50,597 nucleotides of DNA. Origin: Shigella phage S2_02. A program made the translations under genes and the position numbers. Shown here in pieces: positions 1,473 to 46,737 of the stretch (position 1 is its first letter; each line of letters opens with the position of its first letter). The notes below the pieces were generated by a model. The model searched no databases. It was not told the DNA's origin and worked only from the letters and a program-made list of their open reading frames with translations. Location of the stretch: sequence record OQ223306; one strand, written 5' to 3'.

Positions 1473-1667
1473 ATGGAAACGAAAATTGACGTAGTGGTTG
1501 TTCAGCGCGATTCAACTCACGAGAAGGGTCTGTTCAAGAAAGGAACCGAAATCACGATCGACCTTGAGGATATGGTTTCGTATCACTCTAGCCTTACCTG
1601 GAATGTTGTGCGCGTAGGTAGCGACTACAAACTCAAAGGCTTTAACACTTACTTTGCGGAGGCTTAA
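1473..1667 (+). CDS. hypothetical protein (64 aa)
   Basis: ORF track; SD GAGGAAACG; about 25 nt downstream of predicted start of module 1397-1441. Confidence 0.55.
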   Translation: METKIDVVVVQRDSTHEKGLFKKGTEITIDLEDMVSYHSSLTWNVVRVGSDYKLKGFNTYFAEA

Positions 1668-3762: not shown

Positions 3763-3807
3763 AATAGCACGAATTGCTAAACCTTCCGCAAGGCCATTTG
3801 ATATAGT
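3763..3807 (+). promoter_or_regulatory. Early promoter module: box AATAGCACGAATTGCTAAACC + 18 bp + TATAGT
   Basis: TATAGT 3802-3807 in hairpin AAGGCCA/TGGCCTT; predicted start about 3814 supports ATG 3848 as gene start. Confidence 0.5.
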
Positions 3808-3847
3808 GGCCTTATTGAAGCATGGCAACCAATCAGAGGAATCAGCT

Positions 3848-4147
3848 ATGAAAATCAGATTAACCAGCAACTACTTTAACCGTGAATCTTTCAAACAATA
3901 CATAATCACAGACGGAATGAATCCTGGCATCATCCTTGATGTGTCCTACAACATTGGCGACGTTATGTTTGTATCAGCAACTGAGCTTGCAAAGTACGCA
4001 AAGCCAGAACATTGTCACCTGGCAGAGCCTCACTTGATCGATGGAAAGGTTACAGATTACGCATTCACCAAAGGTGAGTATGAAATCGTGAGATCTGGAC
4101 CTTTCAGCTTCTGGAACAAACTTAAATCAGGGGAGTTATTCAAATGA
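3848..4147 (+). CDS. hypothetical protein (99 aa)
   Basis: ORF-track frame (track start is GTG 3806); ATG 3848 has SD CAGAGGA and lies downstream of predicted start of module 3763-3807. Confidence 0.55.
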   Translation: MKIRLTSNYFNRESFKQYIITDGMNPGIILDVSYNIGDVMFVSATELAKYAKPEHCHLAEPHLIDGKVTDYAFTKGEYEIVRSGPFSFWNKLKSGELFK

Positions 4148-4431
4148 GCAAAACTCATAAGTTAAAAATTGCCCCGATACATTTCATTGGTGTAATGAAC
4201 GGAGCCAAAACGGCAGAGTTCCGCATCAATGACCGCAACTTCCAGGTTGGTGATATCCTTGAGCTACGCGAGTTCGATCGTGACGAGTTTACCGGGTGGG
4301 AAGTTCACGCCAGGGTGTCCGATGTTACAGACGTGACGCCATACATCAATCGCGGTTATGACGAGCAAGAATGCGACTTCACGCAATACGTGATGTTATC
4401 AATCAAGCCTTACAGGAAGGTTAGACCATGA
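4144..4431 (+). CDS. putative ASCH/PUA-like (DUF3850-like) domain protein (95 aa)
   Basis: ORF track; N-terminal pattern KLKIAPIHF...GAKTAEFRINDRNFQVGDILELRE recalls ASCH-type small phage proteins (from memory, unverified). Confidence 0.4.
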   Translation: MSKTHKLKIAPIHFIGVMNGAKTAEFRINDRNFQVGDILELREFDRDEFTGWEVHARVSDVTDVTPYINRGYDEQECDFTQYVMLSIKPYRKVRP

Positions 4432-5066
4432 AATTTGAGTGCGTATCAAGTAGCGGATCTGGTTTTAAGTGGGGAAAAACTTACAAAGGTGTTCGCGTAA
4501 ATGATGACAGCTTCATCATTACTGATGAGAACGATTGCAACGTGAACGTTGTACGGCGTCACGAATATCAGGAAATTTTCCTGCCTTATGGCGGTAGCTC
4601 AAAATATATCTTCCATCGAATCGTGGATGGTGTTAAATTTAAAGACGTAATCGAAGCAATCAACCAACTGCATAATAAAGAGGTCAAATTTATGAAATTC
4701 GAATGTATCAGTGATAACACCAAAAAATTTACCGTTGGCAAAATCTACGACGTGCCTACTGAGCACGCAAAGCACACTGTAGCACTGACCGACGACACGG
4801 GTCGCCACCGCATTGCAACCGTAACGCACAACTGTGAAGGTCTTCGCTGGAATAGCGGCGGAACTAAGTTCGCAACGTTCGGCAAGAAGCGCAAGCGTAC
4901 TTTCTGCGTTAATGGAAAGGTTACAGCGAACAAGATCCACAACGTCAAGCCGTCAGAAGTTGACCGTAAGCCAGCGACGAAGTTTGAAGAAAAGGCAGAT
5001 TTGTCTGGTCTGGCTATCGCTCTTGTTCTCCTGGTTGCTTCGATTTCGCTGCTATTCATCATGTAA
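4428..5066 (+). CDS. membrane-anchored protein with internally duplicated N-terminal domain (212 aa)
   Basis: ORF track; two segments each starting MKFEC(V/I)S; C-terminal hydrophobic helix LSGLAIALVLLVASISLLFIM. Confidence 0.6.
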   Translation: MKFECVSSSGSGFKWGKTYKGVRVNDDSFIITDENDCNVNVVRRHEYQEIFLPYGGSSKYIFHRIVDGVKFKDVIEAINQLHNKEVKFMKFECISDNTKKFTVGKIYDVPTEHAKHTVALTDDTGRHRIATVTHNCEGLRWNSGGTKFATFGKKRKRTFCVNGKVTANKIHNVKPSEVDRKPATKFEEKADLSGLAIALVLLVASISLLFIM

Positions 5067-5073
5067 TGCTAAT

Positions 5074-5107
5074 GGGGAATCGGCTCTGAACGGTTCCCCT
5101 TTCTTTT
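5074..5107 (+). terminator. Rho-independent terminator
   Basis: GGGGAA...TTCCCC hairpin followed by TTTCTTTT directly after stop of 4428..5066. Confidence 0.6.
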
Positions 5108-5214
5108 GGAGAAAACACTATGCCAGACTTTTCTAATTGGAATAACGAGCCGCCATCATTTCAGGAGTTGCTATTTTGCCTCCTGATCCTGACACTATCT
5201 CTTAAGGGTGTTTT

Positions 5215-5433
5215 ATGGCTACTATCATGACAGCAGAAGATGCAGCACGCGAAGCAGTGGAAGGAATGCGCCCAAATAGCTCCAGAATCGCCCACTACTA
5301 CAAATTTGAGGTGTCGGCAGTGCAATTGGTCCATGAAATTTTAAGGCTCCCACAAGTCGATTCAGCGCGCGTGGTGACGTGCTTAAAAAATTATTTTTGC
5401 ATCACTATTAAAACGAATAGCACGAATTGCTAA
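5215..5433 (+). CDS. hypothetical protein (72 aa)
   Basis: ORF track; weak SD; C-terminus NSTNC and stop are encoded by box 5416-5436; an alternative 36-codon hydrophobic ORF 5120-5230 has a better SD. Confidence 0.4.
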   Translation: MATIMTAEDAAREAVEGMRPNSSRIAHYYKFEVSAVQLVHEILRLPQVDSARVVTCLKNYFCITIKTNSTNC

Positions 5434-7338: not shown

Positions 7339-7568
7339 TGTTCGGTTTAAGTGAAGTGGAATGGAACGTAGTAAAGCGCGCGGCGAAGGAATTAAATAAA
7401 TTCGTTAGCGGCATGAAGAAGGAAGATCGTAAAAACGACAAGATTATGATTGACGTAATCTCAACTCACCACAAAAAGGTCGAGCCACTCATCGACCGCT
7501 ACAAATTTGTCTGGACTGCCGGGTATATTGCCGGTCGCGTAGGTAACAAAGAATGGGATTACGAATAA
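7338..7568 (+). CDS. hypothetical protein (76 aa)
   Basis: ORF track; TAATG overlap with upstream stop. Confidence 0.5.
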   Translation: MFGLSEVEWNVVKRAAKELNKFVSGMKKEDRKNDKIMIDVISTHHKKVEPLIDRYKFVWTAGYIAGRVGNKEWDYE

Positions 7569-7771
7569 TGGCTAATTTACCGAAGAAAGGCGATCAGGTT
7601 CGATGCATCACGTCACGCAATAGCGATGCTTTCTCGGCGGGATGCGCGTACGACGTTGAAAAAGTCAGTAAATCAAAGAAAATTGTATTCGTGTACGGGG
7701 ATGATGGAAATCTGCATGAGATTGACTACCCGCAGGATGTGACTAATGGTCAATTCGAAATTAATGATTGA
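7568..7771 (+). CDS. hypothetical protein (67 aa)
   Basis: ORF-track frame 7553..7771; ATG 7568 overlaps upstream TAA (TAATG) so preferred over 7553. Confidence 0.45.
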   Translation: MANLPKKGDQVRCITSRNSDAFSAGCAYDVEKVSKSKKIVFVYGDDGNLHEIDYPQDVTNGQFEIND

Positions 7772-29300: not shown

Positions 29301-29330
29301 AAAGGGGCCGATTGGCCCCCTTTTTTTTAA
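29301..29330. terminator. Bidirectional Rho-independent terminator
   Basis: GGGGCC-gatt-GGCCCC flanked by A3 upstream and T8 downstream; sits between convergent genes. Confidence 0.7.
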
Positions 29331-30292
29331 TACATGTTCGGAGTGAAAGGAATTGGCATTGAAATGTTTATATTGAAGGGGAATCGCGCTCCGCTTTGGG
29401 TGGAATAATTACCTACTCTTGTTCCTGGGGCGCTTCTAACGTTACCGCCGCTCATGCAAACGCCCTTGTATCGAATGTTATTATATCCACCTGTAACTCT
29501 GCATATCGTACCTGTTCTCAGTATTGGGAAAAATCCACCGCACCACTGCCAACCATCATTTATCGCCATAGTCCCGCCAAGAACGAAGGGGCGTCTAACG
29601 CTTGAGAAAACGATCTGGCCAGCAGGGTTACTCATAGTTATTCCCGGCCCAGGAGGTGGTGGGGTGTTATTAAATATTACGAGTTGAACGTATACGCTCG
29701 CGCCAACGTCATCAATCCCGTTATAGTTTGCATCCCTGCACCATATTGTATTGCCGTCAGATTCAAGTGTTACGTTTGGATTATCCCACATACCGAAAGG
29801 AACGCCCTGTACTGGCAACTGAGCCTGACCGTTAACCTGAATCCCCCCAACAAATGCAGCGCTCATCAATCTGGCGTTATTCGGTATCGCTGCGAAGTTC
29901 GTTGAATCGTTAACAAGTACCCCCTGATTTCCAGCTTGAGCGGGGAGGATTTCGTAGCAGTTTCCATAAAATCTCATCCTCCTTCCACCGTGCCCGTTAA
30001 AATTACCTACCGTTATTCGTCCGGTTGAATCATTGACCTTCTGAAAACTAGTCAAATAATACACCTCCGGGATGTAATCCATATCGTCTATGTAGATAGC
30101 CTGAGATGGAAGGCAAAAAGCGGTAGATCCTGGACTCATTTGCAGACCAAAATCAAAAACCGATCCAGATGAATCAACTCCGTCAGCCTGTATAGGTCCA
30201 CACCATGACGGGGCGCGAAGCCCTGAAGTTATCTCCATTGCCGGGCGACCGTCGTTTAGGTTTATATATATTCCTTGCCCCATAATTACCAC
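29327..30292 (-). CDS. hypothetical protein co-transcribed with cor-like gene; possible receptor-recognition / tail-fibre-associated protein (321 aa)
   Basis: ORF track; Gly/Asn/Ser-rich with PPPPGPG linker; start overlaps stop of cor-like gene; product assignment speculative. Confidence 0.45.
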   Translation of the reverse strand: MVIMGQGIYINLNDGRPAMEITSGLRAPSWCGPIQADGVDSSGSVFDFGLQMSPGSTAFCLPSQAIYIDDMDYIPEVYYLTSFQKVNDSTGRITVGNFNGHGGRRMRFYGNCYEILPAQAGNQGVLVNDSTNFAAIPNNARLMSAAFVGGIQVNGQAQLPVQGVPFGMWDNPNVTLESDGNTIWCRDANYNGIDDVGASVYVQLVIFNNTPPPPGPGITMSNPAGQIVFSSVRRPFVLGGTMAINDGWQWCGGFFPILRTGTICRVTGGYNNIRYKGVCMSGGNVRSAPGTRVGNYSTQSGARFPFNINISMPIPFTPNMY

Positions 30293-30516
30293 TCTTTAGT
30301 TTTGATTGACACTTTGCCGCTAAAGTTGCCCTGATCGTCGTCGGATGACAGACCTTTGAATCGCATATCAATTTCGCCAGCAGGAACCTTTTGACCATCA
30401 ACGAATCGCATCATGCAAGAACCGTATGCGTAAGTAACGCAGTCGCCATTTTTAAGATTCTGAGCACAACCAGTCAGGATGAATGCCGCAGCAATAATGG
30501 TGATTAACTTTTTCAT
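30286..30516 (-). CDS. cor: Cor-like outer-membrane lipoprotein (superinfection exclusion candidate) (76 aa)
   Basis: ORF track; signal peptide with lipobox LTGC; size and position next to tail-fibre genes as in T1/phi80-type phages (from memory). Confidence 0.55.
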   Translation of the reverse strand: MKKLITIIAAAFILTGCAQNLKNGDCVTYAYGSCMMRFVDGQKVPAGEIDMRFKGLSSDDDQGNFSGKVSIKTKEW

Positions 30517-42742: not shown

Positions 42743-42919
42743 ATGAAGCGAGTTAAGTGCATCCGAAATGACTCCAAAACACTTCCATTCCGCGTAAATC
42801 AGATCTATAGTGTTGGTTATGATTTCGGTGGTGGATTATTTGAGATTTACGACGGGCGAGATTCAGCAATCCAATCTCCCCTGAATGGTCATTATCTGGA
42901 ATTTATTGAGATAGATTAA
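42743..42919 (+). CDS. hypothetical small protein (58 aa)
   Basis: ATG with SD AAAGAGGA downstream of module 42669-42713; below ORF-track cutoff; followed by terminator. Confidence 0.45.
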   Translation: MKRVKCIRNDSKTLPFRVNQIYSVGYDFGGGLFEIYDGRDSAIQSPLNGHYLEFIEID

Positions 42920-43037: not shown

Positions 43038-43253
43038 ATGAAAGAATTTTTAACAGCGGCTACGTCCAGCACGGGCGGTGCTTCATTGGTGGGGGCGGCG
43101 ACCGGGCAGCTTTATATTGCTGGCGCTACATTCATTTGCTTTCTTCTTTTTGGTGTATGGGGCGCGTACTGGAAGTATCGCGATAGCAAGGCAATCCATG
43201 AGGCGCTGAACGATGGAGATCTCAATAAGGCACTTAAGATTAGGGGGCGGTAA
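43038..43253 (+). CDS. putative holin (71 aa)
   Basis: ORF-track frame 42975..43253; ATG 43038 has SD GGTGAG; hydrophobic core and charged C-terminus; directly upstream of endolysin. Confidence 0.55.
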
Positions 43254-43741
43254 TGGGATTAAAAAATAACGTTATAGGCGCATCGATCGGGGCAGCTTTG
43301 ACGTTGACACCAACGCTACTGGAGCGAATCGAAGGGATAGAATACGAAGTGTATTACGATATAGCCGGAGTCCCTACAGTATGCAGCGGAATAACCGGGA
43401 CGGACGTCATACCTGGAAAGAAATACACTAAGCGAGAGTGCGATGCGTTGCTGATAAAACATATCGGCGTCGCTCAGCGATACGTTGACAAAAAGGTTAA
43501 GGTTGACATTCCGGTAACGATGCGAGCCTCACTCTACAGCTTCACATTCAACGTTGGTACTGGCGCGTTCGGATCTTCTACAATGCTTAAGCTAATAAAT
43601 CAGAGTAAGCACAAGGAAGCGTGCAATCAGTTATGGCGATGGGTATACTACTACAACCCAAAAACCAAAAAGCGCGAAGTGTCTAGAGGACTCAAGAACC
43701 GACGCGCTGAAGAATACGCGTATTGCGTTAAGGAATTATGA
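43253..43741 (+). CDS. endolysin (T4-lysozyme-like) (162 aa)
   Basis: ORF track; N-terminal catalytic pattern E...D...T in [26 protein letters not shown]. Confidence 0.8.
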
Positions 43742-44142
43742 TGAGACTTAAGAAAACGTGCATTGCGATTGCAGTGGCTGTTGGTGTTATTTCTCTATCC
43801 GGTTGCTCGACAGCATCTGCCCTGAGCGGTTTAATCGGATCTAAACCGGAAGTTACAGCACAAATCGGAGAGGAGAATACAAAGCAATTAGCAGGAGTAA
43901 CCGCAAAATCCGAAGATAAGCGAGATGTTAAAGTTGAGAAGTCCAATGTAGGAAAGATTGACTCTTCCTTGAAGAAGTCAATTGAAGTGTCAACCATTAA
44001 GGCCAACACAGTTAACGCTGAAAGCATCACAGTAACAAAACCGGAAAACTGGTACGACGCTATCGTTGGCTGGATTCTCGTTTTTATTGGTCTATTGCTG
44101 GTTTATTTTTCACTTCGTAAGGACGAAAAAAAGGAGGCTTAG
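43738..44142 (+). CDS. unimolecular spanin (134 aa)
   Basis: ORF track; N-terminal lipoprotein signal with lipobox LSGC plus C-terminal transmembrane helix in one polypeptide, as in T1-type u-spanin. Confidence 0.7.
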
Positions 44143-46320: not shown

Positions 46321-46737
46321 TTATAAGTATTTGGCCTCAAAGGTTGTGCCGTCTGCAATGATGAATCCGACATCCGCACGAAATAAGGTCCAGCGGCAAC
46401 CGTCCTCATCAAAGATGTAACCAGCCACAGCACCGAGAGCGCGACCGCTTTCTACCTGGTAACGCTTTCCAACCTTGAATGATTTTTTCATCGGGTTGCG
46501 ATGGTCAAGTCCGGTGCACTTGAGCGTCTTTGTTTTCAACTCAGTGAACTTCGCGAAGAAGATTTCATCAGATCCGTGAATATGTAATTCATCATGCTTT
46601 TCAAGTTTTAAATACTTCCCGCATTTTAACTTGATTTCACGAGTGCCATCATATCGCTCACGACCTTTGTATAGGTTGTTTACTTCAAATCCTGTGATTT
46701 TATCTGCGTGAGTACATTTCAGTTTGATGGATTTCAT
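46321..46737 (-). CDS. hypothetical protein (138 aa)
   Basis: ORF track; SD AATCAGGAG. Confidence 0.55.
   Translation of the reverse strand: MKSIKLKCTHADKITGFEVNNLYKGRERYDGTREIKLKCGKYLKLEKHDELHIHGSDEIFFAKFTELKTKTLKCTGLDHRNPMKKSFKVGKRYQVESGRALGAVAGYIFDEDGCRWTLFRADVGFIIADGTTFEAKYL

Follow-up and report, generated by a model that had tools for sequence, protein, structure and literature searches.

The six-stranded barrel of Gp54, a free 64-amino-acid cytoplasmic protein of phage Bas11 (PDB 9AXB), displays a prominent β1-β2 loop and a topology called very rare by the authors who described it; Gp54 triggers the defence protein CapRel^SJ46, its own function is not known, and CapRel is not activated even by close homologues of Gp54 (PMC11578894). 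C-tail-anchored membrane proteins end in their only hydrophobic helix, lack a signal sequence at the N-terminus, and expose their functional domain to the cytoplasm; the insertion of such proteins in Escherichia coli is established (PMC6794478 and PMC3426401). The sequence comparison was applied to the 50,597-nucleotide sequence of Shigella phage S2_02 (accession number OQ223306; this whole stretch is referred to as the window), an essentially complete genome of a T1-like phage (Tunavirus, Drexlerviridae) whose gene order was that of T1 and its relatives. The gene under study was the gp68-like open reading frame (ORF) at 4428..5066 (+), which encoded 212 amino acids plus stop and was a homologue of gp68 (ST68; YP_003876.1) of phage T1 with an N-terminal extension. 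Taken as a whole, this gene was best explained, at about an even chance, as a gene of a virulent T1-like phage for a protein with binding barrels, anchored in the inner membrane by its C-terminal tail; the two-barrel tail-anchored architecture itself was assigned with high confidence, and two homologous soluble domains on a C-terminal anchor, with a terminator behind them, were what the initial annotation of the window had described.

Domain architecture and predicted topology

The two ends of the gp68-like ORF coincided exactly with those of the initial annotation, and its start ATG overlapped the TGA of the upstream DUF3850 gene (ATGA, 4428-4431) and was served by a Shine-Dalgarno (SD) sequence GGAAGG at 4415-4420 (SD duplex energy -6.1 kcal/mol). 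Judged by its sequence, the protein is a member of the T1 gp68 family (phrog_10580): the PHROG profile, modelled on the 212-amino-acid form, matched it over the full length (residues 1-212 versus profile positions 1-212 of 212, E 4.5e-134), and 44 homologues were found. No match of the 212-amino-acid protein to Pfam, PADLOC, or PDB sequences exceeded the threshold, the BFVD Foldseek search matched uncharacterised phage proteins only, and an exhaustive hidden Markov model (HMM) search of 1.84 billion representatives returned only eight proteins, none of them annotated. The 1.3 kb around the gene matched 65 records of Escherichia/Shigella T1-like phages at 80-99 % DNA identity, and zero copies of the gene were present in 5,426 complete E. 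coli genomes and 72,556 plasmids; the gene was restricted to virulent T1-like phages, and the possibility of a prophage or plasmid moron was rejected because of the absence of copies from these genomes and plasmids.

The protein could be divided into an N barrel at 4428..4625 (+) (residues 1-66), a connector at 4626..4691 (+) (residues 67-88, with a predicted helix at 71-83), and a C barrel at 4692..4889 (+) (residues 89-154), the last being the conserved core of the family. The two segments described in the initial annotation as starting with MKFEC(V/I)S were both present, one from residue 1 (MKFECVS) and the other from residue 89 (MKFECIS). The self-alignment that had been proposed as a check on them was significant over the first 19 residues only (BLASTP of residues 1-88 versus 89-212: 10/19 identical, E 7e-5); Smith-Waterman alignment of the N and C halves scored 53 (5000 shuffles: 25 ± 4.3, one of them reaching 53), but the single-sequence pair gave no signal once its first 8 residues were removed. 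When the N profile was compared by hhalign with the C profile enriched with distant homologues, 49 columns were aligned at 27 % identity (probability 96.7 %, E 4.5e-10), and the match stayed in register without the first 8 columns (E 3e-4) and also when residues 21-66 alone were matched to the C half (E 0.01). Motifs common to the halves included F13/F101, G16-K17/G104-K105, Y19/Y107, and h-x-T-D-(E/D)-x-G at 31-36/119-125, and a metagenomic protein with four repeats, P0050, matched both halves (E 1.3e-5 and 2.3e-9). Because the profiles matched over 49 columns and still did so at E 3e-4 without the shared start, the halves were taken as homologous beyond chance over a domain-sized stretch, and the two barrels are, on these alignments, old and diverged homologous copies. 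The tandem duplication of the initial annotation was upheld as to the homology of the halves, but it was not a recent or simple one, the copies being about 27 % identical over the 49 positions; the later shared motifs were likewise real in the registered profiles but weak, with no single-sequence signal beyond the start.

Structure prediction, a further check proposed with the initial annotation, bore out the likeness of the two halves: AlphaFold2 modelled an equal six-strand pattern in residues 2-66 and 89-153. Each barrel was predicted as a six-stranded β-barrel, the N barrel with strands at 2-8, 18-25, 28-32, 38-45, 50-53, and 60-66 and a long β1-β2 loop, and a separate model of the C half alone, built on an alignment that included homologues at 28-44 % identity, gave predicted local distance difference test (pLDDT) values of 71-74 in all five models. 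In these models the barrels fitted the description of Gp54 in 9AXB, with six strands and a β1-β2 loop that stands out, and they would thereby share a Gp54-like fold in the SH3 neighbourhood.

The C barrel was followed by a linker at 4890..5000 (+) (residues 155-191), which was basic (12 lysines and arginines versus 5 aspartates and glutamates), variable, and predicted to be disordered (pLDDT <50 at residues 158-190), with a juxtamembrane net charge of +7 and with insertions and deletions among homologues. The linker led into a C-terminal tail anchor at 5001..5063 (+) (residues 192-212), whose helix included the last residue of the protein. The C-terminal transmembrane helix named in the initial annotation was thus found again by three criteria: (i) the 19-residue Kyte-Doolittle maximum was 2.78 at residues 194-212, the best value elsewhere being 0.54; (ii) a helix was modelled at residues 192-211; and (iii) a hydrophobic tail was kept in all full-length homologues, those at 28-44 % identity included, with divergence of the tail sequence itself. 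The ratio of nonsynonymous to synonymous divergence (pN/pS), calculated like the other divergence figures below from 14 fused genes, was lowest in the C barrel (0.05), followed by the N barrel (0.19, at a synonymous divergence, pS, of 0.375), the linker (0.37), and the helix (0.39); by this measure, both barrels are functional and the C barrel is very tightly constrained.

The N-terminus (MKFECVSSSGSGFKWGK) was polar, with no hydrophobic segment or signal peptide apparent (19-residue hydropathy at most 0.54 outside the tail), and no residue followed the hydrophobic helix. Because no signal peptide was seen, the segment preceding the helix carried a charge of +7, and nothing came after the helix, the barrels would, in line with the known biology of bacterial tail-anchored proteins, face the cytoplasm, tethered at the inner face of the inner membrane. 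The protein would accordingly resemble C-tail-anchored membrane proteins: its only hydrophobic helix closes the chain, a signal sequence at the N-terminus is lacking, and the functional domain is predicted to be cytoplasmic. Its soluble domains were unrelated to those of known members, and it was phage-encoded.

The initial annotation had favoured an envelope-associated exclusion or takeover role. In an exclusion role, the inner-membrane protein would block superinfection by, or DNA entry of, a second T1-like phage, for example by occupying a membrane component of DNA translocation. A membrane protein in a presumed early arm would suit such a role, as would its non-essential nature (the N barrel being lost in T1 and truncated in several phages) and its confinement to one phage group, which is often seen for self-exclusion genes. 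The predicted topology, however, placed only the helix in the membrane and no residue in the periplasm, with neither signal peptide nor lipobox; the window carried a separate cor-type cassette at 29330..30516; and the cytoplasmic barrel was conserved while the helix was free to vary (pN/pS 0.05 and 0.39), the opposite of what a helix-mediated block would require. The cytoplasmic topology was a better fit to a tethered cytoplasmic binder than to a periplasmic or envelope exclusion factor, and exclusion was considered unlikely. The Cor/Llp lipoproteins and the T4 proteins Imm and Spackle were, like the gp68-like protein, small, non-essential, and membrane-associated, but they act from the periplasm or outer membrane with signal peptides, lipoboxes, or several spans, none of which the gp68-like protein had, and no sequence or fold relation connected them with it. 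The cor-type cassette (29330..30516, -) was composed of a 76-amino-acid lipoprotein gene (30289..30516), with an LTGC lipobox and a weak Cor match (E 5.5e-6), and a gene for a 321-amino-acid membrane protein (phrog_1265); it likely provides the FhuA-directed exclusion function of this phage.

Modular history and internal start

T1 gp68 corresponded to the C half alone: its 124 amino acids were 87 % identical to residues 89-212, with a similar barrel, linker, and tail anchor, and its locus had the same terminator and downstream genes (gp67/gp66-like and PNKP) as the window. Unlike the window protein, it was of the one-barrel form; it came after an 80-nucleotide leader with its own SD, and T1 contained none of orf100 (3848..4147), the DUF3850 gene (4144..4431), and the N barrel, which the window had between this leader and the second segment start MKFECIS. 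The leader block GAAGCA-N3-CAACCAA...GAGG...ATG was present once in T1 and twice in the window: (i) a first copy at 3817..3850 (+), composed of GAAGCA-N3-CAACCAA, SD, and ATG and now located 5' of orf100; and (ii) a second copy at 4653-4694 (+), with GAAGCA-N3-CAACCAA at 4653-4667, SD AAAGAGG at 4677-4683, and ATG at 4692. Because this block matched the T1 leader and was duplicated in the window, the last approximately 14 codons of the N half, which make up the 3' part of the connector, were identified as the former untranslated gp68 leader. The two leader copies bracketed, as direct repeats, the cassette orf100 plus DUF3850 gene plus N barrel, a clean example of cassette gain or loss between short direct repeats.

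T1, Badaguanvirus IME347, and four distant metagenomic T1-like phages carried the single-barrel form by itself. In each of the distant relatives (28-44 % identity), the gene occupied the same genome position and encoded one barrel with a linker and a hydrophobic tail at the C-terminus; in three of the four metagenomic cases it lay directly 3' of a DUF3850 gene. The N barrel was absent from T1 and IME347 and was truncated in phage Chapo, which had lost N-barrel codons 1-58 but kept the last 29 codons and an intact C half; deletion or frameshift of the N barrel with the C half intact was seen in Chapo, P0036, P0045, and P0047. Because T1 and the distant relatives all had one barrel at the same position, a one-barrel tail-anchored protein was taken as ancestral, so that, on sequence evidence, the C barrel plus linker plus anchor is the ancestral unit and the N barrel is an add-on of the Tunavirus lineage fused through the old leader; for T1 itself, a secondary cassette loss is the best reading. 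In this respect the initial annotation, with its internal tandem duplication, needed revision: the C copy with linker and anchor made up a complete standalone ancestral gene, and the N copy was a lineage-specific addition. Since the N copy was absent from T1 and the outgroups and travelled in the leader-flanked cassette, an ancient local duplication and the capture of a paralogue both fitted the data.

The old start appeared to be retained. The in-frame ATG of Met89 at 4692..4694 (+) was the sole gene start in T1, and AAAGAGG-N8-ATG was invariant in 14/14 fused genes; its SD duplex (-6.5 kcal/mol) was the strongest anti-SD match in the gene and at least as strong as those of most genuine neighbouring starts, and local structure around this SD and ATG was weak. 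The codons upstream of Met89 (codons 67-88, 4626..4691) had a pS of 0.073 versus 0.30-0.37 elsewhere, about 4.5-fold lower (Fisher p = 9e-4), a dip that would reflect either nucleotide-level constraint or a recombination boundary. Met89 is likely the real start in Chapo and in the frameshifted variants, and because of the invariant strong SD, the pS dip, and the phages that can initiate only at Met89, dual initiation giving 212- and 124-amino-acid products was considered likely. An internal sigma-70 promoter before Met89 was rejected, since the promoter scan found none in the gene; judged by eye, only CATAAT at 4671-4676 resembled a good -10 hexamer, and transcription from it would begin within the SD.

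The same observations bear on whether the 212-amino-acid fusion is incidental, with the 124-amino-acid product from Met89 as the functional one and the N half as a decaying remnant of an upstream gene that had lost its stop. In agreement with this, T1, IME347, and distant phages have only the C half, the internal SD and ATG are intact, and natural variants often have a disrupted N half; however, the N barrel was under purifying selection (pN/pS 0.19 at pS 0.375), the in-frame join was intact in 59 of the 61 phage records carrying it, the divergent P0037 (58 % identity) was also of the two-barrel form, and neither homologue searches nor the exhaustive HMM search found a standalone N-barrel gene with its own stop. 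An incidental fusion was judged quite unlikely.

Putative function and related small β-barrel proteins

Because the barrels were SH3/Gp54-like and selection was concentrated on the barrel rather than on the helix, we infer, tentatively and as the less probable part of the overall reading, a tethered binding module. Its working unit would be a small six-stranded barrel, a flexible lysine/arginine-rich linker of about 37 residues, and a hydrophobic helix ending the protein, to which, in most Tunavirus phages, this one included, a diverged second barrel plus a short helix is joined in frame at the N-terminus; the start at 4428 would give the two-barrel product of 212 amino acids and that at 4692 probably the one-barrel product of 124 amino acids. 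The barrels would act as ligand-binding modules capturing a conserved host or phage macromolecule, the captured partner would be kept on the cytoplasmic side of the membrane in the period before replication, and the role would be one of accessory takeover or counter-defence rather than that of an enzyme or channel. Early expression was assumed from genome position only, the literature on early transcription of T1-like phages having yielded no timing data for these phages.

Several points weigh against the tethered-binder reading and its structural basis. The fold was taken from AlphaFold models built on shallow alignments (32 and 12 sequences; mean pLDDT 74-75), the five full-length models spread from pLDDT 44 to 75, and the likeness of the N and C barrels was judged by strand pattern without direct superposition; anchor and absence of a signal peptide were judged by hydropathy alone. 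The 212-amino-acid protein had no PF25180 match at E <= 1, a sequence link to Gp54 was rejected (hhalign of the Gp54 alignment versus the N and C profiles, probability <1 %), and the Gp54 resemblance could be convergence on a small barrel. The pS dip before the internal ATG could be due to recombination at a module boundary rather than to a translation signal; every relative was annotated 'hypothetical', so that no annotated homologue supplied a function; and a basic linker with small barrels would suit nucleic-acid binding equally well.

The last point leads to a nucleic-acid membrane tether, in which barrels and basic linker would hold phage DNA or RNA, maybe together with the upstream ASCH-like protein. 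Membrane-anchored replication organisers exist, such as phi29 p16.7, which would be a functional analogue. The linker, however, was the least conserved part in both sequence and length, so its charge may serve only the positive-inside rule; the PHROG labels concerned are unverified annotations; and T1, which has no ASCH gene, still keeps gp68. A role of this kind was regarded as doubtful.

For the tethered binder, the nearest structural comparison remained Gp54, from which the window barrel would differ in being duplicated and, by prediction, membrane-tethered. The window also contained a clear Gp54 orthologue, a 64-amino-acid ORF at 1473..1667 (+) (PF25180, E 5.9e-33; phmmer to 9axb_A, E 1.2e-9). 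A more elaborate proposal was a nested two-start device, in which one- and two-barrel anchored isoforms of the Gp54 fold would serve as sinks or decoys, capturing a host immune sensor or another fold-recognising host factor and keeping it at the membrane, remote from its target; this was considered highly unlikely. If it were true, the Drexlerviridae would have in the Gp54 fold a general and diversifying scaffold for interactions, exploited by phage counter-defence and by host sensing alike.

The barrels were further compared with DUF7244 (PF23896), DUF6501, and phrog_4927, with which they shared the N-terminal pattern h-K-C-(I/V)-x5-7-h-x-x-G-x-x-Y and a small barrel. The links were weak and all sub-threshold: DUF7244 matched residues 90-110 with 14.5 bits (E 0.038), below the Pfam gathering cut-off of 27 bits, and the DUF7244 protein of the window gave only P = 0.005 against the C profile by hhalign; the four-repeat protein P0050 bridged phrog_10580, DUF7244, DUF6501, and phrog_4927. 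Unlike the gp68-like protein, DUF7244 had no anchor, and its genome location differed. The standalone SH3-clan DUF7244 protein of the window (42743..42919, +; E 1.8e-27) was encoded immediately upstream of the holin, endolysin, and spanin genes, the arrangement reported for the standalone DUF7244 SH3 protein in the Drexlerviridae lysis module of phage KanT1 (PMC13164509).

This distantly similar gene adjoining the holin, together with the single hydrophobic helix, would be the grounds for a lysis-related, holin- or antiholin-like membrane protein. A complete lysis cassette (holin, endolysin, and spanin; 43038..44142) was located 38 kb off, the gp68-like gene lay in the opposite arm, surrounded by small accessory genes and genes of nucleotide metabolism, and its product had a large predicted cytoplasmic domain with no periplasmic or C-terminal charged tail. 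A lysis role was extremely improbable and was rejected on account of the complete cassette elsewhere.

Other small ORFs of the window with a 'K-C-I' segment (42743, 7553, 46321, 6788, and 48445) were only marginally similar to the barrels (P = 0.003-0.02), and no relation is claimed. Among them, the 138-amino-acid ORF at 46321..46737 (-) (phrog_2684) had internal repeats starting with IKLKC and TLKC, recalling MKFEC (C-barrel profile P = 0.003, marginal), and may from its sequence be another multi-barrel protein; the 72-amino-acid ORF at 7553..7771 (+) belonged to phrog_4927, which was matched by the repeats of P0050 (L007 239..1051, 270 amino acids, no anchor) at E 2.8e-28.

Searching the literature by locus tag and accession turned up no work on the gp68-like gene, and as far as that literature goes, the fold link, the one-barrel anchored core, and the derivation of the two-barrel form by leader read-through, with its internal start kept, are new. 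The gene is an interesting accessory gene of the small phage β-barrel kind, not a new kind of system. Few phage triggers of a bacterial immune protein have been defined structurally, Gp54 among them; if the predictions hold, the rare fold of Gp54 would occur in a second, sequence-unrelated family of the same phages, duplicated and tethered, and would be a recurrent accessory scaffold of T1-like phages. The tethered version is tractable, since localisation, partners, and natural one- and two-barrel variants can be followed; the locus illustrates cleanly the gain of a domain by a phage gene through translation of its former leader, with the old start staying in place; and the practical value lies in annotation.

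Genomic context, terminator, and other elements

The gp68-like gene sat in the left arm among many small rightward genes, including those for a DUF3850/ASCH-like protein, a PNKP-type phosphatase, and several without assignment, and its place was conserved: after the DUF3850 gene or the leader, and before the terminator and the gp66-like, gp65-like, and PNKP genes. The DUF3850/ASCH-like partner gene (4144..4431, +; 95 amino acids; PF12961, E 2.9e-16) was directly 5' of the tail-anchored barrel gene in most T1-like phages, and the pair was kept in the metagenomic T1-like contigs L006, L023, and L026, whose barrel proteins were 32-44 % identical to that of the window.

The strong terminator that the initial annotation had placed 3' of the gene was recovered as an intrinsic terminator at 5074..5108 (+), composed of a hairpin at 5074..5099 (9 pairs, 6 of them G-C) followed by the T-run TTTCTTTT, with an RNA folding energy of -17.1 kcal/mol (z = -2.35); a rho-independent terminator was annotated at the equivalent site in T1 and also in Chapo. 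A 36-amino-acid hydrophobic ORF 3' of the terminator (5120..5230, +) corresponded to T1 ST67. In phage SH2 (L001 3329..4132), the gp68-like stop was lost (Q instead), and the ORF read through the terminator into the small ORF, giving 267 amino acids.

The 17-mer ATAGCACGAATTGCTAA, containing the inverted repeat TAGCA-N5-TGCTA, had eight occurrences in the window versus 0.02 expected: 2137, 3764, 5417, 6712, and 35123 (+) and 46801, 47316, and 49045 (-). Where checked, the copies were located in intergenic gaps or at gene ends, and a TGnTATAGT-like -10 element followed the copy at 3764; from its sequence and placement, ATAGCACGAATTGCTAA is probably a phage promoter or operator element.

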